From NCBI GenBank assembly GCA_964450885.1, contig CAYVFE010000001.1, positions 438,572 through 502,571 of the forward strand: a stretch of DNA of 64,000 nucleotides, in the 5' to 3' direction. The translations under genes were made by a program, and so were the position numbers. This document shows, piece by piece, positions 40,431 to 60,559 of this stretch (position 1 is its first letter; each line of letters opens with the position of its first letter). The notes under the pieces were generated by a model, which saw nothing but the letters and a program-made list of their open reading frames with translations, searched no databases and was not told the DNA's origin. The stretch comes from an uncultured Gammaproteobacteria bacterium. GTDB taxonomy: Bacteria > Patescibacteriota > Microgenomatia > Levybacterales > GWA1-39-11.

Positions 40431-41507
40431 ATGAATAAAGTTGCTGTCCTTATTTTTCTACTAACAATACTCCTTTCATCAATCGGGCTGTTCATCTTGT
40501 ATGAGAGCTCATCTTATACGGCACTTCTGAATCTTGATGATAGATTTTATTTCATTAAAAATCAGGCGATATATCTTCCGATCGGAATAGTCTTGGCTTT
40601 GATAGTAAGCAAATTTCCAGAGAAGAAGCTTTATGCATTGTCCCTGCCATTTTTACTTGCGACATTTATACTTTTAATTGCTGTGTTTTTACCAGGACTT
40701 GGTTTAGAGCTTAAGGGTTCTCATAGATGGATAGACTTAGGCTTTACTGTATTCCAGCCCTCCGAGCTTTTGAAAATCTCTATGACGCTTTATCTTGCCG
40801 CCTGGTTTTCTAGTAAGGAGAAGGGAAGAGTCTTTGCTTTTCTTATACTTCTCGGAGTATTTTGTGGTCTAGTCATGCTTCAACCTGATTTAGGAACCAC
40901 TTTTATTATCTCGATTACTGCAATTTCGCTGTTCTTTTTATCTGGAGCCAAGATTAAGGAAATGCTTTTGATAGGCGCTATCTTGTCGGCAGGGGTCATA
41001 TTTTTTATAGGCACTGCTTCTTATAGGTTGGAAAGATTTTCTTCTTTTAGAGAATTTTCTATAGAAAACCCTACAGATAACACATATCACTTGAGGCAAA
41101 TTATCCTAGGAATAGGGTCTGGGGGGCTATTGGGTGTGGGTCCCGGTAATTCCATACAAAAATATGCCTACTTACCTGAAAATACGACTGATTCGATTTT
41201 CGCGATCTACGCAGAAGAGACGGGTTTTATAGGGTCGTTATTTCTGATATCTTTGTATCTTGGTTATACTTTGTTGGGTTTTTTAATTGCAGTTCGATCA
41301 AAAGATATGTTTGGACGTCTTCTCGCCTCAGGTATTACTATTTTTATTTCTGCCCAGGCCTTGATAAATCTTTCCTCACAAGCGATAATAGTGCCCTTGA
41401 CAGGAGTTCCACTGCCTTTTATATCATTTGGAGGAAGCTCAATGATCATAAATTTTATAGCGGTGGGACTTTTGATGAATGTAGCAAATCATTCAAATAA
41501 AAAATGA
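40431..41507 (+). CDS. ftsW: SEDS-family peptidoglycan glycosyltransferase FtsW
   Basis: It has the SEDS motifs FQPSELLKISMTLYLAAW and VPLTGVPLPFISFGGSS. Confidence 0.8.
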   Translation: MNKVAVLIFLLTILLSSIGLFILYESSSYTALLNLDDRFYFIKNQAIYLPIGIVLALIVSKFPEKKLYALSLPFLLATFILLIAVFLPGLGLELKGSHRWIDLGFTVFQPSELLKISMTLYLAAWFSSKEKGRVFAFLILLGVFCGLVMLQPDLGTTFIISITAISLFFLSGAKIKEMLLIGAILSAGVIFFIGTASYRLERFSSFREFSIENPTDNTYHLRQIILGIGSGGLLGVGPGNSIQKYAYLPENTTDSIFAIYAEETGFIGSLFLISLYLGYTLLGFLIAVRSKDMFGRLLASGITIFISAQALINLSSQAIIVPLTGVPLPFISFGGSSMIINFIAVGLLMNVANHSNKK

Positions 41508-44410: not shown

Positions 44411-45550
44411 ATGCTCATAAGACCTCAAGCTTCCACATTTGCCAAAATAAGAGTCGTCGGTATCGGCGGGGGAGGAGGAAATTCTACGGATTCGATGATC
44501 TCAGAGGGTCAAATCCAAGGAGTTGACTTCATAGCGTTAAATACTGATGCACAGGCTCTTTTAAAGAATAAAGCTACAACAAAGCTTCAGATTGGTGAAA
44601 ATCTAACTCGTGGGCTTGGCTCTGGTGGAAATCCAGACATAGGACGAGCTGCAGCAGAGGAAAGTGCAGAGAAGATAAAACAGCTTCTGGAGGGATCCGA
44701 CATGGTTTTTCTTACAGCAGGAATGGGCGGTGGAACTGGTACAGGTGCAACCTCGATCGTAGCACAAGCAGCAAAAGAAGCAGGCGCTCTAACTATAGCT
44801 GTCGTTACAAAGCCTTTCAGCTTCGAGGGGGCACGAAGAAAGGTCTCAGCAGAAGAGGGAATTGAGGAGCTTAAGGATAAGGTCGACACACTTATAACTA
44901 TACCTAATCAGAGGATTCTTGAGGCGGTTGATAAAAAACTTTCTCTTATTGAGGCATTCAAGGTGGCGGATTCGGTTCTTGGGCACGGCGTAAAAGGGAT
45001 TTCAGATATCATTACAGTCCCCGGACTTATAAACGTCGACTTTGCTGATGTTAAGGCAATCATGAACGAGGCAGGAAGCGCACTTATGGGGATAGGTGTC
45101 GGTGTTGGTGAGAACCGTGCACAACTTGCAGCACGTCAGGCGACTTCATCACCGCTTCTTGAAGTATCTATGGATGGTGCACGTGGAGTCCTATTTAACA
45201 TAACAGGGGGCGCTGATATGACTATGCAGGAAGTAGAGGATGCATCTCGTGTTATCTCAAAGTCTGCAGACCCAGATGCAAATATCATATTTGGAGCTGC
45301 AATCAATGAGGAGCTAAAAGATGAAATCCGCATTACACTTATTGCGACAGGATTTGATGAGTCACGTGTCAGGCTCCAGCAGATGGTAGAAGATACAGTC
45401 GACAATATGCAGGGTGGAAATAGCAGCAATAACGATGATGATAGACGTGATCAGTATAGAGACTCAGGAAATGGCAATTCAAATGAAAGATCTAATGACG
45501 ATGACGAGGACATATTCGAGATCCCCGCATTTCTCAGGCAAAAGAATTAG
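44411..45550 (+). CDS. ftsZ: cell division protein FtsZ
   Basis: It has the tubulin signature GGGTGTGA. The C-terminus ...EIPAFLRQKN is the conserved FtsA-binding peptide. Confidence 0.95.
   Translation: MLIRPQASTFAKIRVVGIGGGGGNSTDSMISEGQIQGVDFIALNTDAQALLKNKATTKLQIGENLTRGLGSGGNPDIGRAAAEESAEKIKQLLEGSDMVFLTAGMGGGTGTGATSIVAQAAKEAGALTIAVVTKPFSFEGARRKVSAEEGIEELKDKVDTLITIPNQRILEAVDKKLSLIEAFKVADSVLGHGVKGISDIITVPGLINVDFADVKAIMNEAGSALMGIGVGVGENRAQLAARQATSSPLLEVSMDGARGVLFNITGGADMTMQEVEDASRVISKSADPDANIIFGAAINEELKDEIRITLIATGFDESRVRLQQMVEDTVDNMQGGNSSNNDDDRRDQYRDSGNGNSNERSNDDDEDIFEIPAFLRQKN
45521..45550. repeat. left direct repeat (attL-like), identical to the ftsZ 3' end
   Basis: atccccgcatttctcaggcaaaagaattag also occurs at 54319-54348, with 24 of 30 positions identical. 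Confidence 0.7.
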
Positions 45551-45573
45551 TCTTAAAAACTTCAATTACGAGT

Positions 45574-45597
45574 AGCACCGCAAGGTGCTTTTTTTAT
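45574..45597 (+). terminator. intrinsic terminator downstream of ftsZ
   Basis: The hairpin agcacc-gcaa-ggtgct is followed by a run of seven T. Confidence 0.7.
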
Positions 45598-45711
45598 GTC
45601 TTGCTGAGAGTAGCAAGGATGAAGATTGAATTATAGGTTCAGTTTTGCTAGACTGATTATAGTTCCTCGTAAGAACCCACTTCATTCTACAAGCTACTCC
45701 CGAAAGGGAGT

Positions 45712-46725
45712 ATGAAAATACAAGAACAGGATTTTGTTCAATTCTTAACCATAAAGGGAAAGCTGGCAAAAAAGACTATTGATACATATAGGATTAGGTT
45801 TCGTATTATAAATAGATGGCTTGAAACGAATAAGATTGAGCTTGATAAATATGCATTTGAAAAGTTCCTCTATGAGCTAAGGGAAAAAGACTTAAGCAAT
45901 TCCGCTATAAACACATATATTCAAACAGCGAAGCATATTGAAGGATACTGCAAAGACAGGGGTTTGCCTACTGGCTTTTCTGAGGGTATTGAAAGCATGC
46001 CAAAAACTCACCCCGAGATAAATCCATTAACTCATGATGAAGTTGAACAGCTATTCAACACACATTTGGAATATAAGAATAGAAATGGTGTAAATTGTGA
46101 TAGTCTAGATTTGAAGTATGTTACGCTTACAAAATTTCTTGCGTTGACTGGTAGTAGGATTGAGGAAGCCGCTTCACTAAAAATAAAAAGACTTGATATA
46201 GATAATGGGCAAGCATATTTAGTGAACACAAAAAATAAACAAAATAGATATGTGTTTTTTGACGGTGAAATTAAGTTTGCTCTCACAGAACTTGTAAAGG
46301 GCAGAAAAGATGATGATTTGGTTTTTACAAACAGTAAAGGTGAGCATATTAAGAATGGAGATTTTAATAAAGATTTGCAGTTAAGAGCAAAAAAAGCAGG
46401 TATTACAAAACGGGTACACGCCCATTTGTTAAGACACTCTTTTGGGACGAGTCTTTATAAAAGCAGTCATGATGTAGTTGCAGTGAAAGAGCTTATGGGA
46501 CACAAGGATATTAAATCAACAATGATATATGTGAGTTTAGACACAGAATATTTGAAAAAATCTGCTCAAAGACACCCTTTATTAAGAAAATACATAAAGC
46601 CAATAGAGCGGATTAAGGAGGTAAAAGAATGCATTCAAGCACTTAACTTAGATGATGACAATAGGTTGGATTTTTCACTTTTGGAACATAGTGGAACTCT
46701 GAAATTTGAAGTCAAAATAAAATAA
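45712..46725 (+). CDS. tyrosine-type site-specific recombinase / phage integrase
   Basis: It has an N-terminal SAM-like domain. The catalytic region has R...HLLRHSFGTSL...MGHKDIKSTMIYVSL, the R-H-R-Y signature. Confidence 0.85.
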   Translation: MKIQEQDFVQFLTIKGKLAKKTIDTYRIRFRIINRWLETNKIELDKYAFEKFLYELREKDLSNSAINTYIQTAKHIEGYCKDRGLPTGFSEGIESMPKTHPEINPLTHDEVEQLFNTHLEYKNRNGVNCDSLDLKYVTLTKFLALTGSRIEEAASLKIKRLDIDNGQAYLVNTKNKQNRYVFFDGEIKFALTELVKGRKDDDLVFTNSKGEHIKNGDFNKDLQLRAKKAGITKRVHAHLLRHSFGTSLYKSSHDVVAVKELMGHKDIKSTMIYVSLDTEYLKKSAQRHPLLRKYIKPIERIKEVKECIQALNLDDDNRLDFSLLEHSGTLKFEVKIK

Positions 46726-46727
46726 CT

Positions 46728-47141
46728 ATGGCAGAAGCAATTCAAAACGATGGCATCAAGGCAAGAATTTTAGAATACCTCAAAGATGGGGTGTCAAAAA
46801 AAGATAGTGCTGTTCTATCAGGAATAAGTGAGGCAACTCTTTATCGTTGGGTTGAAGAAGATGACAGTTTTAAGAGCCAGATTGAGGCTAGTATACTTGA
46901 ATACAAACATACGCTTGTTAAGAACCTAGTGGCTAATGCTGAAAAAGATGGAAGGCTTGCATTGGAAATACTTTCAAGACGATACCCTAACGAATGGGGA
47001 GTAAATGCAGTCAATAACGACAGAACTGAAGCACTTAGGAAAGAAAGAATAGATGTAGTAAGGTGGTATGAAAAAATATTGCAAAAAGAACATGAGCGCG
47101 CGATAGAAGGAAAAGTTGAAGAAGAAAGCTCTATATCTTAA
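46728..47141 (+). CDS. small HTH-containing protein (possible excisionase / small-terminase-like DNA-binding protein)
   Basis: VSKKDSAVLSGISEATLYRWVEEDD has an HTH pattern, and the gene is directly downstream of the integrase. Confidence 0.3.
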   Translation: MAEAIQNDGIKARILEYLKDGVSKKDSAVLSGISEATLYRWVEEDDSFKSQIEASILEYKHTLVKNLVANAEKDGRLALEILSRRYPNEWGVNAVNNDRTEALRKERIDVVRWYEKILQKEHERAIEGKVEEESSIS

Positions 47142-47343
47142 ACAGTTCTGAAAGTGGCACGCCTAAAGCCCGTGAGATTTTGTAAGCGGTTTTGACTGAA
47201 ATATTTCTTCCGTTCTCTATATCCCAGAAATAGGCTCTATGTAGACCTGCTTTTTCTGCTAATTCCTCTTGTGTTAACCCTTTCTGTTTTCTTAACTGCT
47301 CAATTCTGGTTGCCAATTTTTGGTAAAGAAAATTGTAGTTCAT
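47131..47343 (-). CDS. XRE-family HTH transcriptional regulator
   Basis: LRKQKGLTQEELAEKAGLHRAYFWDIENGRNISVKTAYKISRALGVPLSELF matches the XRE HTH. I place the start at MNYNF (47343), not at the upstream ATG of the listed ORF. Confidence 0.75.
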   Translation of the reverse strand: MNYNFLYQKLATRIEQLRKQKGLTQEELAEKAGLHRAYFWDIENGRNISVKTAYKISRALGVPLSELFKI

Positions 47344-47363
47344 ACCAATCAAAACTATCAAAT

Positions 47364-47396
47364 TGCAGGATATTTCTTTACCAGATATATCTTGCA
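47364..47396. promoter_or_regulatory. inverted repeat TGCAGGATAT-N13-ATATCTTGCA in the divergent XRE/SHOCT promoter region (candidate operator)
   Basis: The 10-bp arms are reverse complements with one mismatch. Confidence 0.35.
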
Positions 47397-47452
47397 TTAT
47401 TCAAGAACAGGTTGTAATATTAAGATTAATTGGCATAGTATCAATTAACACT

Positions 47453-47821
47453 ATGGACGCTGAAAAGACATTATTTGAAACGAGCTTTGCGGGATTTTGG
47501 ATTAAAATATATCCAAGTAGAGTTGAGTTTAAAGCTGGAGCTGGTTCAGAAATAATTCCAATTAGTCAGATTTCCAGTATTCATACAGGAATGTTGGGAT
47601 ATAGCCAAATAACAATAGAAACAACAGGAGGCAAGAAATATAATATTCCATGTGGTAAGAAGAACGAAGTAAAACAGGCTATTTTCCAAGCACAAGCAGG
47701 AAATGGACAACAAGCAGTGCTGAGCATTGCTGACGAATTGTTAAAGTTAAAACAATTAAAAGATAGTGGAATATTAACCGAAGAGGAATTTAATAAACAA
47801 AAAGAAAAACTAATCTCCTAA
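47453..47821 (+). CDS. SHOCT-domain protein (PH-like N-terminal domain plus C-terminal SHOCT)
   Basis: The C-terminus LLKLKQLKDSGILTEEEFNKQKEKLI is a SHOCT motif. The start is taken at MDAEK; the listed ORF begins at a TTG upstream. Confidence 0.5.
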   Translation: MDAEKTLFETSFAGFWIKIYPSRVEFKAGAGSEIIPISQISSIHTGMLGYSQITIETTGGKKYNIPCGKKNEVKQAIFQAQAGNGQQAVLSIADELLKLKQLKDSGILTEEEFNKQKEKLIS

Positions 47822-47997
47822 ATTACTGCAGGGTCTTGCACTAGACCCGTAGTTAAAACTTGTCAACCCCCAAAATGGAAAAATTACATACTAATTATGA
47901 ACCTAAGTTCATAGAAATATATATATGAAATAAACTTATAGTCAGAAAACCATATGATATTCTCTACTCAACCAAATGATTGGGTGGAGAATAAAGA

Positions 47998-48034
47998 CTC
48001 CTGTTAGGGACTCCACCCAAGACAGGAGTTTTTA
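47998..48034 (+). promoter_or_regulatory. SD-sequestering hairpin plus U-run immediately upstream of the 48036 start
   Basis: The stem ctcctgt(47998-48004)/acaggag(48022-48028) is followed by ttttta and then ATG. The aggag SD sits in the 3' arm. The loop ctccaccc can pair with the upstream gggtggag (47982-47989). Confidence 0.35.
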
Positions 48035-48035
48035 T

Positions 48036-48407
48036 ATGGAAAAAGTTGGAGATATCCTATCCGTAAATGGAAAAACAGTTAACAGTAAGTATAAATCTTT
48101 AACTACAGTAAACAGTAATACTGTTAACAGTAATGTGTGGGAAGAGGTTGAGAATTTAATTCAAATTCACAATATTAAGCCAGAGGGAATAGCAAAGCAT
48201 ATAGCAGAACAGCTAAGTGATGAGAAAAGTCTTCATTATTACTCACTCCTTGTAAAAGAACATAGCTACGAGAAGCTTTTTGAAGCCATGTATTTAACCG
48301 TAGAGTCATGGAAAAATGGCAAAATTAGAACATCAAAACCAATTTACTTTATTGCTATTTTGAGACACTGGGGATTTAGAACAAATTTCAAGGAGGACAA
48401 AAGTTGA
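48036..48407 (+). CDS. hypothetical protein with repeated TVNS motif
   Basis: The ORF has an SD 7 nt upstream of its start. I recognise no family. Confidence 0.4.
   Translation: MEKVGDILSVNGKTVNSKYKSLTTVNSNTVNSNVWEEVENLIQIHNIKPEGIAKHIAEQLSDEKSLHYYSLLVKEHSYEKLFEAMYLTVESWKNGKIRTSKPIYFIAILRHWGFRTNFKEDKS
48075..48134. repeat. three copies of a 15-bp repeat ACWGTWAACAGTAAK (two in tandem), including the perfect 12-bp palindrome ACTGTTAACAGT
   Basis: The copies lie at 48075-48089, 48105-48119 and 48120-48134, inside the 5' end of the 48036 ORF. Confidence 0.5.
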
Positions 48408-48631
48408 AAAGTAGACTTGTTAACAAAAATTCTACATTTCATGCTCGTATTGATAAGGGTTGGTGGAAAATACTTTCTCAATTGCGAACTGAGACAGGAA
48501 AGGGCTTTAAAGAGCTTATAGAGGACGCTCTAATAAACACCTACTATATTGGTGATGATGGAAAACCAGAAGTATATAGCAAGCCCAAGAGTGGACAAGC
48601 AAAAATAGATTTAAATCTTACGAGGAATTAA
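48404..48631 (+). CDS. hypothetical small protein (possibly ribbon-helix-helix-like)
   Basis: The 75-aa ORF overlaps the upstream stop by 4 nt. Any family assignment is weak. Confidence 0.3.
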   Translation: MKSRLVNKNSTFHARIDKGWWKILSQLRTETGKGFKELIEDALINTYYIGDDGKPEVYSKPKSGQAKIDLNLTRN

Positions 48632-48658
48632 GTCTGGAGTAGCTTGTAGATTGAGAGT

Positions 48659-48680
48659 AGGGGCTAGTTTATCTAGCCCT
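48659..48680. terminator. hairpin between convergent genes (ggggctag-tttat-ctagccc)
   Basis: It lies between the stops at 48631 (+) and 48697 (-). There is a weak T-run on the + strand. Confidence 0.3.
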
Positions 48681-48696
48681 TACAAATGAGATCGCG

Positions 48697-49302
48697 TTAG
48701 CCTTGCCTTAAAAGACCTACAAATTTTCCCCGAATTTCAATTTCACCTGGAAAAAAAAATTTGGACTGCAATGAGGAATTTCGTGGACGAAGTTCAATCT
48801 TGTTTCCTTGATTATAAAACCTTTTAACGCTGGCAAGTTGAGCACCGCTTTTATCAAAGAATAAAGCAATTACAACATCTCCATTATCTGCATAGTTTTG
48901 TTGTCTTACTAGAATAATGTCTTCAGGAAGTATCCCATCCTCCACCATGCTTTCTCCTTGGACTTTAAGTGCAAAGTGTTGACCGGTGGGAGAAATTAGA
49001 GATTTTTGCACTTTAATTGGTTCTGGGTTTTCAATATTCTCCAATCCTCCTCCAGCTGAAATTGTTCCTATGAGAGGTATTCTTACTACCTCTTCGTAAG
49101 GATCTAGGATTCCGATGCTACGTGCATTAGTAGTTGGTAATTTCAGAAAACCCTTTCTTCGTAAAACTTGAATATGCTGATGAATCGTTGGGACAGATTT
49201 TTCAAAAGCTCGTGCAATTTCATCAAGCGTAGGACCATGCCCGCTTTTTGCTTGATAATCATTTATGAATTTTAAGATCTCCTTTTGCTTTGGTGATAGC
49301 AT
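48697..49302 (-). CDS. lexA: LexA-type repressor (winged HTH plus S24 peptidase)
   Basis: MLSPKQKEILKFINDYQAKSGHGPTLDEIARAFEKSVPTIHQHIQVLRRKGFL is a LexA DNA-binding domain. The C-terminus has GESM (the catalytic Ser) and a downstream Lys (VKRF). Confidence 0.8.
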   Translation of the reverse strand: MLSPKQKEILKFINDYQAKSGHGPTLDEIARAFEKSVPTIHQHIQVLRRKGFLKLPTTNARSIGILDPYEEVVRIPLIGTISAGGGLENIENPEPIKVQKSLISPTGQHFALKVQGESMVEDGILPEDIILVRQQNYADNGDVVIALFFDKSGAQLASVKRFYNQGNKIELRPRNSSLQSKFFFPGEIEIRGKFVGLLRQG

Positions 49303-49351
49303 GATTTTTGCTCCTTGCAATACCTAATAGTTTAAGGTATATTTTACATAA

Positions 49352-49370
49352 ATGCAACGTGCATATAAAT
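49352..49370. promoter_or_regulatory. palindrome ATGCA-ACG-TGCAT overlapping a TATAAAT -10-like box, 1 nt upstream of the 49371 ATG (candidate operator/promoter)
   Basis: It lies in the 68-bp divergent region between lexA and the downstream operon. A second palindrome, tacct-N9-aggta, lies at 49321-49339. Confidence 0.3.
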
Positions 49371-49889
49371 ATGAATATGGAATTTATAAATGGTTTCTTT
49401 AGTATCCAGTCTGCTACAAGTTTCCTTGTAGTCTCAATTCCGGTAGGGATTTTTATATATAAATTTACAATTTTCCGCATCAGAAAAGATATGCGTCTAT
49501 TTAAGAACCTCCAACGCACGATTTATCTTATGTCAACAGATTCAACTACTGTCCTTCAAAGGGAGAAAACAATGTTTCATATGAACGGGCTATACCACGT
49601 CAGTCCAGACATAGTACATCTTTCTGATCTGGGGCATTTGGAAACAGTAAAAGATTTCTCTATTTTTGTAGTAGGATACACAAGAGGATTTGGGCATTAT
49701 AAAGAAGTCATTGATAGGGCAAAAAGGAATAGTATTCCAGTAGTTGTACTTGCCGGTCCTAGAGATATTACCGACGAAGATATGGCAATTTTTAAAGAGT
49801 ATCCTTACTTTGAGATGTGTAATACATCTTCGCGTTTATTAACTACCATTTTTAGTCTTTCTGCCGTAACACCAAATGATAAAAAATGA
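49371..49889 (+). CDS. membrane-anchored protein with a C-terminal Rossmann-like domain (candidate effector/sensor)
   Basis: It has an N-terminal hydrophobic segment (FLVVSIPVGIFIYKFTIF) and a C-terminal FVVGYTRGFG...IPVVVLAGP. Its stop overlaps the next start (ATGATAAAAAATGA). Confidence 0.4.
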   Translation: MNMEFINGFFSIQSATSFLVVSIPVGIFIYKFTIFRIRKDMRLFKNLQRTIYLMSTDSTTVLQREKTMFHMNGLYHVSPDIVHLSDLGHLETVKDFSIFVVGYTRGFGHYKEVIDRAKRNSIPVVVLAGPRDITDEDMAIFKEYPYFEMCNTSSRLLTTIFSLSAVTPNDKK

Positions 49890-51192
49890 TTTTAACAGTA
49901 CGTTTAGAGTCCACGCAAAAAATTCCCTTTCTCCACTGCAAAGGGAAAGGGATTTTGTAACCGCGGTCTACGACCATATTTGTAAGGCATTAGGCGATAA
50001 TTGTATACAAATTGGCTCTTATCCCAGATTTACATCAACAACTCCGCTTCACGATTTAGATGTGCTATATATTTTGGGAGATATGAGTAGTTTTCTTGAA
50101 AACCCCAGCGAGATACTTACGCGGTTGCAAGCTACTCTCAAGGATTACTTCTTAAAAAATACTAACTACAAGGTAATAATAAGCCTGCAAACGCACTCCG
50201 TAACAGTTAGCTTCGTGGATGGAACTGGAAAAGAAGATTTTGGCATTGACGTTGTGCCTGCATTTGTAAATGGAGTAAATGAATTTGGATTGGATATGTA
50301 TGTGGTGCCGGAAATTATTAAGATAAAAAGAAGCAAGCGTCATTCATATTATTCAGAAAAAAAAGCTGAAAACAAAGCAGTCCAATGGGTAAAATCCGAT
50401 CCCAGAGGCTACATTAAAATAGCCTCTAATATCAATGAAAAGAATGGAGATTATCGTAAGACCGTTAAGTTTATAAAAAAATGGAAGCACAATTTAGCAC
50501 ACAAAAATGAACAAGTTAAATTGAAATCATTTCATATAGAGCAGATCGTTGTGGGTATATTTCAGAAAAATCCTGACGCTTCTATGTTTGATGCCGTCTT
50601 TGAATTTTTTACAAAACTCCCGCAGCACATTGAAAAACCACAGATTCCAGACAGGGCAAATGCAGACGTTTTTATAGATGCTTACCTGGCAGACTTAACG
50701 GATGAACAACGTGCACTAATACTACAAGCAAGAGACCACTTCCTAATTGGGCTTGAAGAATTTACTCCTAGTAAGTCTGTTCACGAGTTACTTTCTGCGG
50801 ATTTTTATAAAAGATTTTCCTCCACAGAGGCATACTTATTTGACAGCTATATTCCGGTTCTCACAGAACCTCAACACACATTTAAGATTAACGGCTGGGT
50901 GAGAAAGAAGCCGGGATTTAGACATGGGTGGTTAAGCCAAATTCCTTGGAAACTTGAGTATTTAAGGTATATTGATTTTTCTGTTTCCCAGGATAATACA
51001 CAGGCACATCTATACAAGTGGAAAGTTAAAAACCATAATTCTTCTCCGCAACCCCGTGGAGAGATAACAGATCATAGAACAAGTCAAAGTCCGGAATCTA
51101 CAAGATATTCAGGTGCTCATTACGTAGAGTGTTTTGCCGTCAAAAATAACGTATGTATAGCAAGACATAGGATTAATGTCCCCATTGCTTAA
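49876..51192 (+). CDS. CD-NTase/SMODS-like nucleotidyltransferase (Pol-beta superfamily)
   Basis: IGSYPRFTSTTPLHDLDVLYIL matches the GS...hD-h-D Pol-beta signature. The third acidic residue is in FGIDVVPAF. The downstream KTVKFIKKWKH resembles the conserved helix of cGAS/DncV-like enzymes. Confidence 0.5.
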   Translation: MIKNDFNSTFRVHAKNSLSPLQRERDFVTAVYDHICKALGDNCIQIGSYPRFTSTTPLHDLDVLYILGDMSSFLENPSEILTRLQATLKDYFLKNTNYKVIISLQTHSVTVSFVDGTGKEDFGIDVVPAFVNGVNEFGLDMYVVPEIIKIKRSKRHSYYSEKKAENKAVQWVKSDPRGYIKIASNINEKNGDYRKTVKFIKKWKHNLAHKNEQVKLKSFHIEQIVVGIFQKNPDASMFDAVFEFFTKLPQHIEKPQIPDRANADVFIDAYLADLTDEQRALILQARDHFLIGLEEFTPSKSVHELLSADFYKRFSSTEAYLFDSYIPVLTEPQHTFKINGWVRKKPGFRHGWLSQIPWKLEYLRYIDFSVSQDNTQAHLYKWKVKNHNSSPQPRGEITDHRTSQSPESTRYSGAHYVECFAVKNNVCIARHRINVPIA

Positions 51193-51472
51193 GGCTTTAT
51201 GGATATAAAAGAAGCAAAGAAAATTTTAGGTAGTGAAGCAGATGGAATTTCTAATGAACAACTAGAGAAAGAAATTGATACAGCAAACTTGCTCAAAAAT
51301 ATATTTTTCAGTCTTCAAAAAAAGGCAAATAAATAACCCATAGTAGAACTGCTAGGCACAAGACAATTTTTGTTGTCATCTATTAGCCTCAAATCCATGT
51401 CGTAATATCAACCTTGTGCGACATAACGACACTTTTCTATCAAATTTTTTCTCCAAGTAGTAAAATTGAAAT

Positions 51473-51865
51473 ATGATAATTGTTGTTGGAGCATTAATAG
51501 TTCAGGGCGGTAAGTTTTTGTTAGCAGAGCGGTCCCATGGAGAGTTAAAAGGGAAATGGGAATTTCCCGGGGGGAAGCTTGAGAAAGGCGAGACAGAGGA
51601 AGAAGCTCTCGTAAGAGAGATTGAGGAGGAGTTAGGTGTTCAAGTCGTTATTGAAGAAAAAATCAAAGTCTTTACGCATAAGTATAGCTTCGGCGACATA
51701 CACTTAACATTGCTTAGGTGTAATTTATCTGATGACGTACAACACATTGGTTTACGTGGAAGCCATGAAAAATTTGACTGGGTAGATTATAATACCAGAG
51801 ACATCAATTTTGCCCCTCTTGATAGGAAAATCTTTACATACTTAAAAAAACATTATGTTATCTGA
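51473..51865 (+). CDS. NUDIX hydrolase (MutT-like)
   Basis: It has the Nudix box GGKLEKGETEEEALVREIEEELGV. Confidence 0.8.
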   Translation: MIIVVGALIVQGGKFLLAERSHGELKGKWEFPGGKLEKGETEEEALVREIEEELGVQVVIEEKIKVFTHKYSFGDIHLTLLRCNLSDDVQHIGLRGSHEKFDWVDYNTRDINFAPLDRKIFTYLKKHYVI

Positions 51866-52865
51866 ACTAATTGTCAAATTTGCAACAAATTACTTAGCGG
51901 CAACATCAACACCGTTTGCTGGAAATCGTGAAGCAGACGTTATTCGTTATGAACTCCCCGAATTGATAAGAAAGCTTGCTGCAATACCACTAAATTACAA
52001 AGTGTATGGCTCCGTTGGTCAAGGGCAATGGGCAGAAGTTCCTTGGTTTGCAATTCTTGACAAAGATATTACAACATCAACACAAAAAGGATATTATGTT
52101 GTTTTTCTATTTTCTGCGGATATGAAATACGTATATCCTTCCCTTGGTGTTGGTTGGCAACAGTTTGAAGAAGAGTATGGGGTCCGGGAAGGAAGGATTG
52201 CAATAGAGCAAGTTGTTAGGGAATTACAAAGGATTTTGAGGTCGCCCCTTGATGACTTTTCTTTTGCAAAAAGGGACCTAAAGGCAACTTCAATTTTGGG
52301 AAAAGGATATGAGAGCGGAGGGGTATGCCATAAAGTTTATGAAATAGAAAAAATGCCTTCAGACGAGGTGATTGTAAATGATGTTAGAAATCTTATGGGA
52401 GTGTATCGCGAACTGAAAGGATTAGTGGGGAAAAATGTTTTAAATCTTGAAATTCCTGAGGAGCAAATTGCAGACGAAGAATTTAACAGAAAGGTTATTG
52501 AGGAAAGTGAAGATGTAGCCTCTCCAGAGGTAGCAAAAGAAAAAATCAAAGCTCTAACAAAAATAATTGAAACAGCACCGGCTCAGGAGAGAACAAAGAT
52601 GGCGCGGTATGTGGCAAGAAATAGGAAATTTGCAGAATTAGTGAAGCAGGCAGCTAATTATACTTGCCAGATTTGCGGAATGCCTCCATTCAAAACCAAA
52701 TCAGGAGAACTATATGCAGAAGCACATCATACTTTAGAGCTAGCAACTCACAGAATAGACCACCCTGATATAATGATATGTGTATGCGCTCAGTGTCATC
52801 GTGTTATTACATATGGTTCCGAAGCAGAAATAAGCAAGCGAGAAGATATGGGTAGACAAAATTAA
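51855..52865 (+). CDS. HNH endonuclease with an N-terminal MrcB-N (DUF3578)-like DNA-binding domain, a type IV restriction-like enzyme
   Basis: The N-terminal KVYGSVGQGQWAEVPWFAILDK...GYYVVFLFSADMKYVYPS resembles the MrcB/McrB N-domain. The C-terminus CQICGMPP...AHHTLELATHRIDHPDIMICVCAQCH is an HNH motif. It overlaps the Nudix gene by 11 nt. Confidence 0.5.
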   Translation: MLSELIVKFATNYLAATSTPFAGNREADVIRYELPELIRKLAAIPLNYKVYGSVGQGQWAEVPWFAILDKDITTSTQKGYYVVFLFSADMKYVYPSLGVGWQQFEEEYGVREGRIAIEQVVRELQRILRSPLDDFSFAKRDLKATSILGKGYESGGVCHKVYEIEKMPSDEVIVNDVRNLMGVYRELKGLVGKNVLNLEIPEEQIADEEFNRKVIEESEDVASPEVAKEKIKALTKIIETAPAQERTKMARYVARNRKFAELVKQAANYTCQICGMPPFKTKSGELYAEAHHTLELATHRIDHPDIMICVCAQCHRVITYGSEAEISKREDMGRQN

Positions 52866-52869
52866 GGTT

Positions 52870-53145
52870 ATGGATAAGACATTAATAACAATTATTATAA
52901 TCGGGGCACCAACCCTATTAATTGCAATTTGTTGGGTTTCGTTGATGATTACAATGAGAAAAACAACGGGTGAATTAAAGCTTTTTCTTAGTCCTGACAA
53001 CTTAGTTAAGGTATTCGCAATATATTTAGTTTTAATCGGCACAATTTTATTTGGGCTACTTGGGATAATTAACGGTGAAGCTATAGGAGTTATTTTTAGT
53101 GGTGTGATTGGGTATACAGTTGGAACGAAGTTTAATAAGAATTAA
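52870..53145 (+). CDS. small two-TM membrane protein
   Basis: It is 91 aa with two hydrophobic helices. Confidence 0.35.
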   Translation: MDKTLITIIIIGAPTLLIAICWVSLMITMRKTTGELKLFLSPDNLVKVFAIYLVLIGTILFGLLGIINGEAIGVIFSGVIGYTVGTKFNKN

Positions 53146-53417
53146 TAAATTGCTAAGCAGTTTATAAGGTCAAATTTTTGTTTGTGAGTTAAAGTCTTCA
53201 ATTCCTTTTCTCTCTGCATAGCAAAGCTTCTTGTTTGATAGGGTTCAATATGAACAATTTTTACTGGGCGTCTGTATTTTGTCCATTTGGCTCCTGGATA
53301 TTTCCCAAGTCCGTTATGTTCTTTTTCTCTTTCTTCAATGTTGTTGGTTTGTCCAGTATAATATGTTCCATCCCCACATTCTGCAATATAAACATAATAA
53401 ACCGGTGGTTTTAACAT
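53142..53417 (-). CDS. GIY-YIG nuclease family protein (UPF0213/YhbQ-like)
   Basis: VYYVYIAECGDGTYYTGQTNNIEEREKEHN has the GIY-YIG core with the conserved Arg, Glu and Asn. Confidence 0.7.
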   Translation of the reverse strand: MLKPPVYYVYIAECGDGTYYTGQTNNIEEREKEHNGLGKYPGAKWTKYRRPVKIVHIEPYQTRSFAMQREKELKTLTHKQKFDLINCLAIY

Positions 53418-53469
53418 TCTTAAATTATAGCAAGAACAGATGAAGTAAGGGGTGGTATAATACCGAGAT

Positions 53470-53652
53470 ATGACTAAACTAATTCGTCAAAAAAGAGGAG
53501 ATACTTTGGTAAAGACAATTGAAAAAAAATATAAGGTTGATTTAGGCTACCGAGCTGATGCAAAGTTATCAACCGTTTTAAAAAAAACAGGGGCTCCTTC
53601 TCTATCAAAGCTAGTTAAGCTTGCAGATACGACTAGGAAAAAAACCAAGTAA
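53470..53652 (+). CDS. hypothetical small basic protein
   Basis: It is a 60-aa ORF and may not be coding. Confidence 0.2.
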   Translation: MTKLIRQKRGDTLVKTIEKKYKVDLGYRADAKLSTVLKKTGAPSLSKLVKLADTTRKKTK

Positions 53653-53658
53653 TATCCG

Positions 53659-54195
53659 ATGCAGCCGACTGACCTATTATTTATATCCGATATCCCATTA
53701 AGGAAAAAAATAATTAACGCCATTGATACGATTTCCGGTTTATACCTTATTGAGAAAGATACGAATTATCCTCGTGAATTATCAAAAGAAATAAGAAGAA
53801 CTATCGTTTTATATGCTGCCTCAATAATAGAAGCTTCTCTTTTGTTTTTGTATAAAAGGAAAGCATCACCAATTTTGAAAACTGAATATGCAGACGTTCA
53901 TACATTGCCTTTGTCTTTGCAAAATGGCTCACAAAATAAATTAGTTATTGCAAGACAGGTACAAAGTCCTAGAGACGAAAGAGAGTTGATGTTGGATGTT
54001 TTGTTAAAATTCTATACCTCTAAAGAAAAAATCATACCTAAAAGCTTAGCTGAAAAAATAATAAAAGCCAAAGATATTAGAAATACTTTTCATCTTTCTA
54101 AATCTAGGTCTGGTCTTGTAGTTAGTGCTAAAGTAATGCAATTATCAACGGATGCTGTTTATGAAACAATTGTTATCGTTAAGAACAGTTTGTAA
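53659..54195 (+). CDS. hypothetical protein
   Basis: It is a 178-aa ORF at the right end of the island. I recognise no family. Confidence 0.35.
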   Translation: MQPTDLLFISDIPLRKKIINAIDTISGLYLIEKDTNYPRELSKEIRRTIVLYAASIIEASLLFLYKRKASPILKTEYADVHTLPLSLQNGSQNKLVIARQVQSPRDERELMLDVLLKFYTSKEKIIPKSLAEKIIKAKDIRNTFHLSKSRSGLVVSAKVMQLSTDAVYETIVIVKNSL

Positions 54196-54318
54196 GCGAA
54201 TTGTTATTGACCATTCCTCTTAAAAGGTTTATATTCATTACGGAAGACATAAGAATACCTTTTATTACGAGGTGCTTATTAAAGGAAATTGAAGCTACAA
54301 GCGGGTTATGTCTATAAA

Positions 54319-54348
54319 ATACCCGCATTTCTACGGCAGAAGAACTAA
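54319..54348. repeat. right direct repeat (attR-like): an orphan copy of the ftsZ 3' end encoding IPAFLRQKN-stop
   Basis: atacccgcatttctacggcagaagaactaa. The same frame hits a stop only 13 codons upstream, so this is a gene tail without a gene. Confidence 0.7.
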
Positions 54349-55793
54349 TCAGCATTGTACACTTCCCAAAAGGTTAGATCATTCACCCTGTCAACTTTCC
54401 TGTAGTTTTTTATAATATATTCATTAACAATATCTTCCGGATTACTATTCAGATCGTGAGTGACTATTAGTCTTACTTTTTCTTTACTCAGGCTTTCTAG
54501 AAGTTTTCTTTTAGATTCCTCCGATAATGCAGATGGTGACAGGTAGTCATAAGCGGTGGGATTGTCTCTTTCTATTAGAAAATACAGCATCGGTGCGTAG
54601 TAATTAATAAAGACTTTGTCTCCGGGGTTTGTTTTTTCATCAACAATTTTTAAGACTTCTGGGACTTCACGTTGATATTTATCGTTTAGCCAAATATAAA
54701 CCCTTGGATTTGCAACTAATTGATGAGACGAAGACAGTGGTGCTTCCCATCGATAGTATCCGTAGAAAAGCGCTGTATAAAATCCCATTATGATAAGTAA
54801 TCCTGCATATACAAAAACAAACTTGCGTCTTAATCTATCTTTCTCAAGTAAAAAAATAGGCAGTAGTGATAATCCTGTCGCGGCGATAAGTGGCGAAAGA
54901 TGGACGTAGTCTGTTACAGGACGAAATCCGGCCAGATAGAAAAAAGTCGTAAATAGGGGAAGGAGCGCTAGGTTTGATCTCTGTTTAAAAGTAATTATTA
55001 GGGAATAGATACCAACTAGAAGTGGTGAGAGGTAAAAAGCTAACTTCATGTAGGAGTAGATAGAATCAGAATACAAAATGGGCGTATCGATGGTTTTTTC
55101 TATTACAATTTTTAATATGACATTGTGGTAGAAGTTAGTTATGAATGGATTTAAAGAGTTTGTTGTTATTAGATAAAAGAAAAAAACACCAATTCCTGCA
55201 AAAACTCCCAACAAAAATTGCTTGAGTATCTTTGAGTCTTTTTGAACCAATATATAAGTAAAAAATGCTAGAATAACTGCGATTCCTAAGTTTTGCTTGG
55301 TCATAAAAACCAAAAAAGCGAAAAAACCTGACAAAACGATAGTTTTGGGTTTGTTATACAGAAAAGCAGCAAGCGCAATAGTGCCAATCGTGAGGCTTAC
55401 AATGCTCGGCCAGATGAAGTTTATATGACTAGGTCCCCATGAAAGATAGATAAGTATTACAAAAAGTGAATAATACTTTTTTTTAGTTAGGATTTTTGTA
55501 ATGAAAAATATAGACGTTACGGTCGTGAGAGATAGTAAGAGTGCAATGAGCCTGGAAGAAAATATACTTTCACCAAATAGACTAAATCCGAATACCATTA
55601 TAAATGGTGCAAGAGGAGTATAAACGAAATCAAAATCGCTATACAGGGCTTGTCCGCCTATAATCCTTTGAGCAGTATTTAGGACGTAGCCTTCGTCTGG
55701 GTAGAAGATTCCCCGAAAGTGAAAAAAAGAAAGAACAAATATTATAAGAATTAAAACAGTTATTGTGATTTTGTTTTCCAATAATAACTTCAT
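54345..55793 (-). CDS. GT-C family membrane glycosyltransferase (ArnT/PMT-like)
   Basis: The first-loop motif FRGIFYPDEGYVLNTAQRIIGG has the DE residues, and there are ~12 TM helices. Confidence 0.45.
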   Translation of the reverse strand: MKLLLENKITITVLILIIFVLSFFHFRGIFYPDEGYVLNTAQRIIGGQALYSDFDFVYTPLAPFIMVFGFSLFGESIFSSRLIALLLSLTTVTSIFFITKILTKKKYYSLFVILIYLSWGPSHINFIWPSIVSLTIGTIALAAFLYNKPKTIVLSGFFAFLVFMTKQNLGIAVILAFFTYILVQKDSKILKQFLLGVFAGIGVFFFYLITTNSLNPFITNFYHNVILKIVIEKTIDTPILYSDSIYSYMKLAFYLSPLLVGIYSLIITFKQRSNLALLPLFTTFFYLAGFRPVTDYVHLSPLIAATGLSLLPIFLLEKDRLRRKFVFVYAGLLIIMGFYTALFYGYYRWEAPLSSSHQLVANPRVYIWLNDKYQREVPEVLKIVDEKTNPGDKVFINYYAPMLYFLIERDNPTAYDYLSPSALSEESKRKLLESLSKEKVRLIVTHDLNSNPEDIVNEYIIKNYRKVDRVNDLTFWEVYNAD

Positions 55794-57748: not shown

Positions 57749-60559
57749 ATGTTCAAACCAGTAGATCCTAAAGCCAGTTTTCCAGAGATCGAAGAAAAGA
57801 TAATAAGATTTTGGAAAGAAAATAAAGTTTTTGAAAAATCTGTAGATAAAGACTACGGAGGCCGAAAGTGGACTTTTCTGGACGGTCCGCCATTTGTAAC
57901 TGGAATGCCTCATTATGGATCACTTCTATCTTCGCTTCCGAAGGATGTTTTTGGTCGTTATTGGACAATGAAAGGATATAAGGTTAGGCGTGTTTGGGGT
58001 TGGGATGGCCATGGGTTACCTATCGAAAATAAAGTTGAAGGGGCACTTGGAGTCGAGCGAAAAAAAGACATTGAGGATAAAATAGGGGTCGATAAATTTA
58101 TAGAAGAATGTAGAAAATATGTGAACGATATTTCTTCGGAATGGGAGTGGTACATAGATCATATCGGACGTTGGGTTGATTTTAAAAATGCTTATAAGAC
58201 ATGGGATACAGATTATATGGAGTCTGTTATGTGGGTTTTTAAAAATCTTTATGATAAGGGACATATATATAAGGGTTTGAGAATAGGTCTTTATTGTCCC
58301 CATTGTTCTACTCCTATCTCAAATTTTGAGGTAGCGATGGATGTTGATAACTACAAGGAGATCGCTGATTTTGCAACTACATATAAGTATCTTCTGGAAG
58401 GCGAGAAGAATACATATATATTAGCTTGGTCGACGACTCCGTGGAATAAGATAGTAACACCGGCTTTAGCTGTAAATCCAAAGCTCACATATGTAAAAGT
58501 TGAACAGAAGGGTGAATTTTATATTCTAGCGAAATCTACACTAAAGACTTTGGGAAGTGAAGATTCTTACAAAATAATAGAAGAGTATCAGGGAAGCGAT
58601 CTTGTAGGTAGGAAATTTGTTCCGCACTTCGACTACTATGCAGACAAAGTAAAAGATGGGGAAAAGATATTTGAAATAGTCGATGGCGACTTTGTAGAGG
58701 CTGAGGAGGGAACGGGAGTCGTGACGATAGCTGCATATGGTGAAGAAGACTTAAAATTGATGAAAGACAAGAACATTCATATGGAGATGCATTTGGATGA
58801 AGAGGGAAATGTCAAAAACGACGTTCCTCAATTTGGAGGAATGTATTATCTTAAAGCGAACAAAGCGGTTAACGAGCACCTTGCGGAGAAAGGACTAATT
58901 TATGCAGATACTCAGCGAACTCATAGTGTGCCACTGTGCTGGAGATGTCATACTAGGCTTTACTATGCTCCCCTTGATGCGTGGTTTGTAGATGTGCAGA
59001 GCATGAAGGAAAAGTTAAAGTCTGTTAACGAAGGCATAAATTGGTTCCCCAAGCATTTTAAGACCGGAAGGTTTCTAAAAAGTCTTGAAAATGCTCCAGA
59101 TTGGAACATTTCGAGGAATAGGTATTGGGGGAGCCCAATTCCTGTATGGGAGTGCTCGTGCGGTAATAGAATTGTTGCAGGATCTATTGCGGAAATAGAG
59201 GAACTATCTGGTATTCGAGTAAAAGATTTGCACAAACCGGAGATTGATGAGGTTAAAATAACGTGTAAAAAATGTGGACAATTAGCAAATAGAGTACCAG
59301 AAGTACTCGATAGTTGGATTGAAGCCGGCAGTGCTTCATTTGCCGAAAGACATTTTCCTTTTTCAGAAGAAAAGCTGGAAGAATTCTTCCCCCCAGATTT
59401 TATTGCCGAATATACAGGGCAGATAAGGGCTTGGTTTTACGTGTTACATGTTATAGGCGTGGGACTTTATGATACAAAAGCTTTTAAAAATGTTCTGGTT
59501 GAGGGGGTAATTTTGGGTACTGATGGCAGAAAGATGAGTAAAAATTTCAGAAATTACCCAGATCCTAGAGAAATGTTGGGTCAATATGGGGGCGATGCGC
59601 TGAGACTTTATCTTTTAGGTAGTAATGTCATGCGTGGTGAGGATATAAGGATCTCGCAGGATGAATATAAAGATCAGGTAAAAGGCACGATGCTTATTTT
59701 GTGGAATATCTATAACTTCTTTGTTTCGAATGCTATTCTTTATAATTCGGATGGTGGTAATTTAAGTTCAAAATCTGAGAATATTCTCGATGAGTGGATA
59801 TTGAGTAGGGTTGAGGGGTTGAGGAATACGATGACCAAATCATTGGATGCATATGACACGGTTTCTTCCATATCTGCCGTAAAGGTATTTATTTCCGATT
59901 TTTCGACATGGTATATACGTCGTAGTAGGGAAAGGCTCTATTCAGAAGAAAAAGACGATATAGACGCGTTTTTTGCGACTACAAGCCATGTTCTTATCAA
60001 ATTGTCAAAGTTAATTGCACCAATCATGCCGTTTATCTCGGAAGAGATGTATAAAAATATTACTGATGGCGAGTCCGTTCACCTAGAACCGTGGCCACAA
60101 GAAGAAAAGGAATTCTTTAATCCTGATCTTGAAAGAGAAATGGAGATAGCAAGAGAAGTTGTTGAGGTAGGACATTTTGAAAGAAAGAAGGCGCAGGTAA
60201 AAGTCAGGCAACCGCTTGCAAGCATAAAAATAATTTCCGAGGTAGAAATTTCTGAGAAAATTAGAGAGGTTATAGCTGCAGAGTTAAATGTTAAGAAGGT
60301 TGAAGTTATTGTAGGAGGGAGTACGAAAGTAGAGCTAGATATATCTATAACTGAGGATTTGAAGGCGGAAGGCGTTGCAAGAGAAATAATCCGAAGCATA
60401 CAGCAAGAAAGGAAAAAGCTTGGCACAAAACGAGACGAGTTTGTAAATGTTTATTTGCCTTCTTGGCCTAAAAAATTTGAAGAAGAAATAAAAAAGAGGA
60501 CACTGACACAAAAACTAGAAGAATCAGACGAATTTAGAGTGGAAAAGATAGATGGATAA
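57749..60559 (+). CDS. ileS: isoleucine--tRNA ligase (type 2, eukaryote-like)
   Basis: It has DGPPFVTGMPHYGS...WGWDGHGLPIE and the KMSKS-region GRKMSKNFRNYPDP. Confidence 0.85.
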   Translation: MFKPVDPKASFPEIEEKIIRFWKENKVFEKSVDKDYGGRKWTFLDGPPFVTGMPHYGSLLSSLPKDVFGRYWTMKGYKVRRVWGWDGHGLPIENKVEGALGVERKKDIEDKIGVDKFIEECRKYVNDISSEWEWYIDHIGRWVDFKNAYKTWDTDYMESVMWVFKNLYDKGHIYKGLRIGLYCPHCSTPISNFEVAMDVDNYKEIADFATTYKYLLEGEKNTYILAWSTTPWNKIVTPALAVNPKLTYVKVEQKGEFYILAKSTLKTLGSEDSYKIIEEYQGSDLVGRKFVPHFDYYADKVKDGEKIFEIVDGDFVEAEEGTGVVTIAAYGEEDLKLMKDKNIHMEMHLDEEGNVKNDVPQFGGMYYLKANKAVNEHLAEKGLIYADTQRTHSVPLCWRCHTRLYYAPLDAWFVDVQSMKEKLKSVNEGINWFPKHFKTGRFLKSLENAPDWNISRNRYWGSPIPVWECSCGNRIVAGSIAEIEELSGIRVKDLHKPEIDEVKITCKKCGQLANRVPEVLDSWIEAGSASFAERHFPFSEEKLEEFFPPDFIAEYTGQIRAWFYVLHVIGVGLYDTKAFKNVLVEGVILGTDGRKMSKNFRNYPDPREMLGQYGGDALRLYLLGSNVMRGEDIRISQDEYKDQVKGTMLILWNIYNFFVSNAILYNSDGGNLSSKSENILDEWILSRVEGLRNTMTKSLDAYDTVSSISAVKVFISDFSTWYIRRSRERLYSEEKDDIDAFFATTSHVLIKLSKLIAPIMPFISEEMYKNITDGESVHLEPWPQEEKEFFNPDLEREMEIAREVVEVGHFERKKAQVKVRQPLASIKIISEVEISEKIREVIAAELNVKKVEVIVGGSTKVELDISITEDLKAEGVAREIIRSIQQERKKLGTKRDEFVNVYLPSWPKKFEEEIKKRTLTQKLEESDEFRVEKIDG

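Follow-up and report, generated by a model that had tools for sequence, protein, structure and literature searches.

A 64,000-nucleotide stretch of contig CAYVFE010000001.1 (positions 438,572 to 502,571; hereafter the window), from an uncultured bacterium of the Patescibacteriota lineage, carries an integrative island of ~8.8-kb (45521..54350) on which a LexA-type repressor gene stands divergent to a two-gene operon for a small membrane effector and a cGAS/DncV-like nucleotidyltransferase (CD-NTase). We read these genes as a Type I cyclic oligonucleotide-based anti-phage signalling system (CBASS) with its own LexA-family repressor, a reading that we hold to be probable when the full mechanism set out below is included. 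Its components differ in firmness, the identities of the parts being near certain, repression by LexA likely, and dependence on RecA plausible. As CBASS effectors kill the cell, how their expression is kept low and then rises on infection is a live question, and the window offers a compact system in which it can be addressed, where 68 bp of control DNA and one palindrome are combined with a cleavable repressor.

The three genes were located from the list of open reading frames (ORFs) and by reading the sequence; the ORFs of the window read through with genetic code 11. The repressor gene, lexA (201 aa), lies at 48697..49302 on the minus strand, with AAGGAG preceding its ATG at 49302, and the MLS(P/Q)KQKE start of its product recurs in the LexA homologues of two related loci, L084 and L092 (related loci are denoted here by L and a number). 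On the plus strand, the effector gene (49371..49889, 172 aa) is followed by the cyclase gene (49876..51192, 438 aa), and the 14-nt overlap between the effector stop and the cyclase start (49876..49889, plus strand) marks the two as translationally coupled. Translation of the effector probably begins at the second Met (49377, MEFI...), giving 170 aa, because close homologues all start with MEFI or MDFI. The starts of lexA and the effector gene are separated by 68 bp (49303..49370). A first-pass annotation, made from the letters of the DNA alone, had placed these ORFs and two palindromes in the control region correctly, the first of which, given as TACCT-N9-AGGTA, is in full ATACCT-N9-AGGTAT. 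It had also treated the order of effector then nucleotidyltransferase as a peculiarity of this locus; order and coupling are instead the norm of this family across the 80 genome loci that carry a cyclase relative, where an ORF of 165-185 aa with one or two N-terminal hydrophobic segments precedes nearly every cyclase and the −14 overlap is found in most. Co-occurrence of the pair in other genomes, which the annotation had proposed as a check, was seen more widely, the effector preceding the cyclase, usually with the 14-nt overlap, in nearly all of ~150 related loci. Directly 3' of the cyclase gene lies a 45-aa ORF (51199-51336), which is also kept on an independent contig, L001, and which is weakly similar (E 5e-6) to an ORF lying ~1 kb before the effector gene of L076.

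By sequence and predicted structure, the 438-aa protein is a CD-NTase of the CBASS cyclase type, as had been proposed from its motifs. The PADLOC cyclase model PDLC00785 matches it over residues 1-437 with an E-value of 8.5e-175, while its scores against Pfam SMODS (21.3 bits, curated cutoff 26.5) and NCBIfam CBASS_cyclase_b (103 bits, curated cutoff 200) fall under the curated cutoffs. Within the CD-NTase (SMODS) catalytic core (residues 1-316; 49876..50823, plus strand), the catalytic residues G47-S48, D60-x-D62 and D125 are invariant in 23 full-length homologues. A search of the PDB with a profile of cyclase homologues returned CD-NTases only, with CdnD (6p82, 7.3e-16) and CdnC (6p80, 2.1e-10) as the nearest solved relatives. 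The AlphaFold2 model (predicted local distance difference test 86.4, predicted template modelling score 0.87) agrees with this, its best Foldseek matches being CdnC (6u7b/6p80), CdnD (6p82) and cGAS, at E-values of 6e-12 to 1e-9. Identity with minimal nucleotidyltransferase (MNT) toxin–antitoxin components or antibiotic nucleotidyltransferases can be ruled out, since CD-NTases or cGAS top every listing, and the MNT, ANT and KNTase families are absent from the matches in Pfam, NCBIfam, PADLOC, the PDB and Foldseek. The remaining ~100 residues, first described as an unassigned extension, have a family after all: Pfam AGS_C matches residues 317-437 (E 1.1e-16; 50824..51192 on the plus strand, which includes the last residue and the stop codon), and the model is all-β across this region, such that it is by both measures the known immunoglobulin (Ig)-like β-sandwich AGS-C domain. 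Weak matches to antibody heavy-chain variable domains agree with the description of AGS-C as an Ig-like fusion on ~40% of Type I CBASS cyclases (bioRxiv 10.1101/2023.05.21.541620).

The 172-aa partner is, as had been supposed, a conserved membrane protein with an α/β C-terminal domain, a conclusion to which its conserved position, its family profile and its structural model all contribute. The model consists of an N-terminal transmembrane (TM) helix (~residues 12-46) followed by a (β/α)5 CheY/flavodoxin-like domain, which is predicted to be cytoplasmic and held by a single-pass anchor. Residues R42, R49, I133, N151, R155 and L156 are invariant across the effector family, and the effector ORFs split into two homologous subfamilies (hhalign probability 98.8%, E 7e-17). 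At least 1,597 members, none of them annotated, were recovered with a profile of the family. The C-terminal domain had been called unrecognised, which holds for Pfam and NCBIfam, neither of which has a match to the effector, and less well for PADLOC, where the C3a59 'TM' model (3.5e-12) and, weakly, the generic CBASS Effector '1TM' model (2.3e-6) match it. Among 32 members of the family there was no Pfam match to SLATT, S-2TMβ/Cap15 or S-4TM, even at E ≤ 1; no solved defence effector was found among the structural matches of the model; and the conserved phospho-acceptor Asp and acidic pocket of an REC/CheY receiver were not found in the effector. Three loci of Acidobacteriota type combine a LexA-like gene and a cyclase with something other than this effector, a 240-aa ORF lacking a hydrophobic segment taking its place in L017 (5266-5988) and no effector being detected in the 1.5-kb gap of L131 and L132. 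This replacement or lack of the TM effector suggests effector swapping within LexA-linked systems.

The 201-aa repressor is on sequence a bona fide LexA-family protein, in agreement with the first-pass annotation. It combines an N-terminal winged helix (Pfam LexA_DNA_bind, 9.1e-12) with an autopeptidase domain (Peptidase_S24, 3.3e-22), and scores 155.1 bits against the NCBIfam lexA equivalog TIGR00498, for which the cutoff is 110.95. Its best PDB match, over the full length, is the LexA repressor 3k2z (2.6e-33), which we take to be that of Thermotoga maritima, and 7b5g, presumably E. coli LexA, also aligned over the full length. The segments ISAGGG, GESM and VKRF align with A84-G85, S119 and K156 of E. 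coli LexA, such that the Ala-Gly cleavage site and the Ser/Lys catalytic dyad are intact.

The association between repressor and operon extends well beyond the window. Of the 80 genome loci, 63 have a recognisable effector together with enough upstream sequence, and in 15 of these a LexA-like gene lies directly upstream of the effector-cyclase pair; in an independent sample of metagenome loci with enough upstream sequence, such a gene adjoins the pair in 9 of 51. All six of the nearest relatives that were looked up (cyclase 53-70% identical) have LexA, and one IMG/VR contig, L082, shows the same adjacency. Genomes hold only one or a few lexA-like genes, and on these counts adjacency in ~20% of loci therefore cannot be chance. 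The arrangement takes two forms, the LexA gene being divergent from the pair in the window, L084, L090, L092 and L013, and heading the CBASS operon in L045, L052, L081 and L087, where its end is 2-3 nt from the effector gene. In a neighbour-joining cyclase tree, LexA-linked loci are scattered over at least six positions, and their flanking genes vary. Since the pairing survives rearrangement, the comparison points to LexA and CBASS as a functional unit, one in which self-cleavage is presumably retained, with the Ala/Cys-Gly site, the Ser and the Lys kept in 21 of 21 adjacent LexA-like proteins. By record titles, 37 of the 80 genome loci come from Patescibacteria or the candidate phyla radiation, so the lineage, which had been thought unusual for CBASS, is one in which this family is common.

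Two further features were seen in the control regions of relatives. Several close relatives have a small gene of 79-103 aa between lexA and the effector, none being present in the window; those of L086 (5207-5473), L090 (3272-3511) and L092 (4236-4475) encode DUF2188 proteins, and others lie in L061 (~5240-5480) and L088 (5189-5500). Of 32 LexA-linked loci, 9 have a perfect DnaA box (TTATCCACA) in the ~120 nt that precede the effector start, compared with 5 of 115 LexA-less loci, against a background expectation of ~0.016 matches per region; examples are at L013:3105, L023:4764, L032:5438, L046:5445, L156:2068 and L061 ~5206. The window's own control region has no DnaA box. Where present, the box may make the same promoters responsive to replication stress through DnaA.

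The 68-bp region between lexA and the effector gene contains a candidate LexA operator, ATACCT-aatagttta-AGGTAT (49320..49340), found by reading the sequence, which is the only exact match to ATACCT-N9-AGGTAT in the 64 kb of the window. A consensus scan places two promoter-like elements around it, TTGCAA-17-TATATT for the effector-cyclase operon (49315..49343, plus strand) and TTTATA-17-TAAAAT for lexA (49341..49369, minus strand), and we infer that the first is the operon's promoter and that the second sets the start of the lexA transcript within the palindrome. The palindrome takes up the spacer and the −10 hexamer of the CBASS promoter-like element and covers the predicted lexA transcript start, and because of this position across both promoters one dimer could shut both. 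In L084 a perfect palindrome, ATACCTTAAA-g-TTTAAGGTAT, stands at the same position, flanked by promoter hexamers of the same sequence and spacing as in the window; L092 has the equivalent palindrome AATACC-N10-GGTATT with TTGAAA/TATTGT hexamers. The PT[IV]H/YQH recognition helix of the window LexA is found again in the LexA proteins of L013 and L061, and in these two loci the half-site TACCTA(A/G)AG occurs twice around a TATACT −10. On this comparison ATACCT-N9-AGGTAT has the conservation and the position over the promoter that an operator would have, and is a candidate for one. A scan of the window with the shorter TACCT-N9-AGGTA returned one exact site and four with one mismatch, none of these at a convincing promoter.

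What argues best for a specific interaction is that recognition helix and site co-vary. At least four classes of LexA recognition helix can be told apart, each with its own class of palindrome: TACCT, as in the window; AGAAC-N10-GTTCT, which pairs with the helix SSPSV..HHI (L002, L023, L046); the TACGC class, TTTTACGC-N5-GCGTAAAA or TACGCTAT-N12-ATAGCGTA, which pairs with SSVQRH (L045, L052, L082, L088); and GTCAA/TTGAC repeats, which pair with a fourth helix class. This co-variation is the best evidence at hand that the palindromes are the cognate operators of the adjacent LexA proteins. Of the two palindromes on which the control region had initially been described, only the first has held up. 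The second, ATGCA-ACG-TGCAT (ATGCAACGTGCAT; 49352..49364), directly followed by a TATAAAT box (49364-49370), is not palindromic in L084 or L092, where only its left part (AAATGCAA) is kept, and on this lack of conservation the second palindrome and the box were rejected as operator and promoter; the palindrome's role is doubtful. A window scan for ATGCA-N3-TGCAT gave this one exact site and a one-mismatch copy, ATGCTACGTGCAT (49115-49127), within the coding sequence of lexA at a distance of 237 bp, which may be chance, 2.3 such matches being expected per 64 kb.

The mechanism that we propose would operate as follows. In healthy cells, a LexA dimer bound to ATACCT-N9-AGGTAT would repress lexA itself as well as the effector-cyclase operon, so that little is made of a membrane effector that could kill the cell. 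Filaments of RecA and single-stranded DNA (ssDNA), formed on DNA damage or during phage replication, would stimulate self-cleavage of LexA and thereby de-repress the operon. A phage cue, possibly perceived through the AGS-C domain, would then activate the cyclase to produce a cyclic (oligo)nucleotide, and binding of this nucleotide by the cytoplasmic domain of the effector would lead to oligomerisation, membrane damage and abortion of the infection. The gating of CBASS by the SOS response is something that we infer.

Several observations weigh against this reading. LexA is missing from about 80% of the members of this CBASS family, and the repressor must therefore be optional. A palindrome with 6-bp arms arises in 30% of intergenic shuffles, and 18% of all 68-nt segments of the sequence contain one; it is because of conservation in related loci, not of a chance test, that we attach significance to this one. 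Sites of the GTCAA/TTGAC class coincide in part with the −35 consensus, and this class may be partly trivial; the window, a dcw/cell-wall cluster, has no SOS genes; and the fold matches of the effector are generic, namely REC and SIS domains. The frequency with which shuffled sequence yields such palindromes, together with the lack of conservation of the second one, is also what would be expected if lexA and CBASS were chance divergent neighbours in AT-rich DNA with no functional coupling. That explanation is the least probable of those considered, given that two collections, independent of each other, both show the adjacency, as do the six nearest relatives without exception, that related loci keep the first palindrome and the promoter hexamers, and that the class of operator shifts together with the class of recognition helix.

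The location of the module on an integrase-bounded island with att-like repeats, the presence of recombinases near several relatives (such as a serine recombinase in L084) and the occurrence of one locus on an IMG/VR viral contig raise the alternative that LexA maintains and induces the island itself, in the manner of phage CI or SXT SetR, controlling excision and transfer after DNA damage, with CBASS as mere adjoining cargo. We regard this as unlikely, as LexA stays with the pair while the flanks change (aromatic amino-acid, ParB-methylase and restriction–modification genes), in many loci is co-directional with the effector and 2-3 nt from it as the first gene of the CBASS operon, and in the window is accompanied by a separate XRE-type helix-turn-helix (HTH) gene (47131-47397, minus strand) already beside the integrase module; moreover, the cyclase family is found on only 2 of 2.9 million viral contigs, a count on which a phage origin was also rejected. 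To a similar degree we doubt that this LexA is the cell's sole housekeeping SOS regulator, with CBASS as one member of a genome-wide regulon. The repressor does exceed the LexA equivalog cutoff, a single lexA is frequent in small genomes, and the AGAAC-N10-GTTCT box common to three relatives, which belong to different classes of Patescibacteria, could be the SOS box of a whole lineage; yet this lexA sits on a horizontally acquired island, the adjacent LexA proteins belong to at least four very divergent helix/operator classes that do not track host taxonomy, and ~20% adjacency far exceeds chance for one or two lexA genes per genome. Very unlikely, finally, is the idea that LexA is a guarded bait whose removal by phage antirepressors or proteases would unleash CBASS: diverse repressor classes beside the same system and the extra DUF2188 gene between lexA and effector in several relatives would suit it, but no candidate phage partner is known, and the self-cleavage residues kept in every adjacent LexA-like protein argue that RecA-stimulated autocleavage is under selection. 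A CBASS module governed by its own LexA accordingly remains the reading that we favour.

The two copies of a 32-nt direct repeat that mark the ends of the island (45521-45552 and 54319-54350; spacing 8798) are imperfect, with 81% identity, and the first of them is the 3' end of ftsZ (FtsZ 44411-45550). The repeats resemble attL and attR, as though a defence island had integrated where the dcw cluster ends. A tyrosine integrase (45712-46725; Pfam 1.9e-33) stands at the island start, and the gene order from integrase through NUDIX is the same on the independent 7.2-kb contig L001, which ends inside the next gene. Just past the integrase and a small HTH protein gene, the XRE-type HTH gene forms a divergent pair with a gene for a SHOCT-domain protein (47363-47821, plus strand), the extended ORF of which overlaps it; the pair is a candidate island regulatory switch apart from lexA. 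Beyond it, a 143-aa ORF (47976-48407) contains a 26-nt imperfect tandem-like repeat (48063-48133, spacing 45) encoding a repeated V-N-S-x motif. Downstream of the CBASS genes, a NUDIX hydrolase (51473-51865), which matches the PADLOC 'phage defence candidate' PDC-S07 (E 1.2e-34), overlaps by 11 nt the gene for a 336-aa protein (51855-52865) with an MrcB-like N-domain (E 7.9e-50) and a C-terminal HNH/type IV restriction-like region, and the two may constitute a second defence module directly downstream of CBASS. The distal part of the island encodes a 91-aa hydrophobic protein (52870-53145, plus strand), a stand-alone GIY-YIG nuclease-domain protein (53142-53417, minus strand) and a 178-aa protein with no family match (53659-54195, plus strand). 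Housekeeping genes flank the island on both sides, including two FtsW/RodA-family paralogues, one inside the dcw cluster (40431-41507) and one after ileS (60552-61649); these are ordinary housekeeping context, the island sitting in the core chromosome. No tRNA genes were found in the 64-kb window.

More broadly, the recurrence of LexA beside CBASS suggests a DNA-damage switch for these systems. A more far-reaching interpretation, to which we give slightly less than even credence as a whole, would join four propositions: that LexA-family repressors are a third class of dedicated CBASS regulator, repeatedly and independently recruited, beside CapH/CapP and CapW; that they link roughly a fifth of a Type I CBASS family, which is very large and rich in Patescibacteria, directly to the RecA/SOS signal; that the effector senses the nucleotide through a previously uncharacterised CheY/flavodoxin-like domain on a single TM helix; and that in some relatives a DnaA box adds a replication-stress input. 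If this is true, a classical SOS switch would have been co-opted many times to arm cGAS-like immunity, ultra-small Patescibacteria included, and a family of membrane effectors that has no Pfam model is in any case brought to notice. In the open-access and bioRxiv literature that was searched, we found CapH/CapP and CapW as the only CBASS regulators, no description of a LexA or S24 repressor tied to CBASS, and almost nothing on CBASS in Patescibacteria.

Set against known systems, the effector-cyclase core is by its gene content a known Type I CBASS, consisting of a cyclase and an effector without Cap2/Cap3, HORMA/TRIP13 or other ancillary genes; the neighbours of the pair are lexA, the 45-aa ORF and the NUDIX, MrcB_N/HNH and GIY-YIG genes, none of which matches an ancillary CBASS family. 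Examples of Type I CBASS in which a CD-NTase–AGS-C fusion is paired with a TM effector include the EcCdnF04-SLATT6 and CdnB-Cap15 operons (bioRxiv 10.1101/2023.05.21.541620) and a validated lactococcal system on plasmid pUCCL631, in which a SLATT effector is encoded upstream of an AGS-C cyclase (PMC11381338). The window shares with AGS-C Type I CBASS the two-gene layout, the small membrane effector directly upstream of the cyclase and the setting in a defence island, and differs from the known examples in the attached lexA, as well as in an effector that, unlike the SLATT, Cap15 (S-2TMβ) and S-4TM types, is made of one TM helix and a CheY/flavodoxin-like domain.

As regards regulation, the closest parallel in proposed logic is CapH/CapP, through which DNA damage induces CBASS expression (Lau et al., bioRxiv 10.1101/2022.04.27.489752), a repressor beside the CBASS promoter being proteolytically inactivated after damage in both cases. 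The components are distinct: CapH/CapP comprises an HTH repressor and a separate Zn-metallopeptidase/GAF protease, whereas the window has a single-chain LexA (winged helix and S24), and domain and defence-model scans found no metallopeptidase gene in the island. The trigger would likewise differ, being ssDNA sensed by CapP in the one and, as predicted, the RecA filament in the other. CapW/BrxR, the WYL-domain regulators of CBASS and BREX (PMC9122588, PMC9122589), resemble the window in placing a dedicated repressor beside a defence operon with a palindrome over the promoter, binding being in the window only predicted; they are winged-HTH-WYL proteins that sense a ligand and are not cleaved, while Pfam finds no WYL domain in the window repressor.

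With canonical LexA (TIGR00498; E. coli 1jhh, 3jso; 3k2z), the repressor shares its full-length architecture, the Ala-Gly site and the Ser-Lys dyad, and a further LexA-like trait is that it is predicted to control its own gene through the palindrome at the lexA promoter. The classical LexA boxes are CTGT-N8-ACAG in E. coli and GAAC-N4-GTTC in Gram-positive bacteria, and ATACCT-N9-AGGTAT differs from both. Unlike canonical lexA, the gene in the window resides on a mobile island and is paired with a defence operon. The suggestion that the locus is an undescribed variant therefore needs to be divided: the effector-cyclase core was known already, the effector family is large and uncharacterised, and it is the attachment of LexA that we rate as a new regulatory variant of Type I CBASS.

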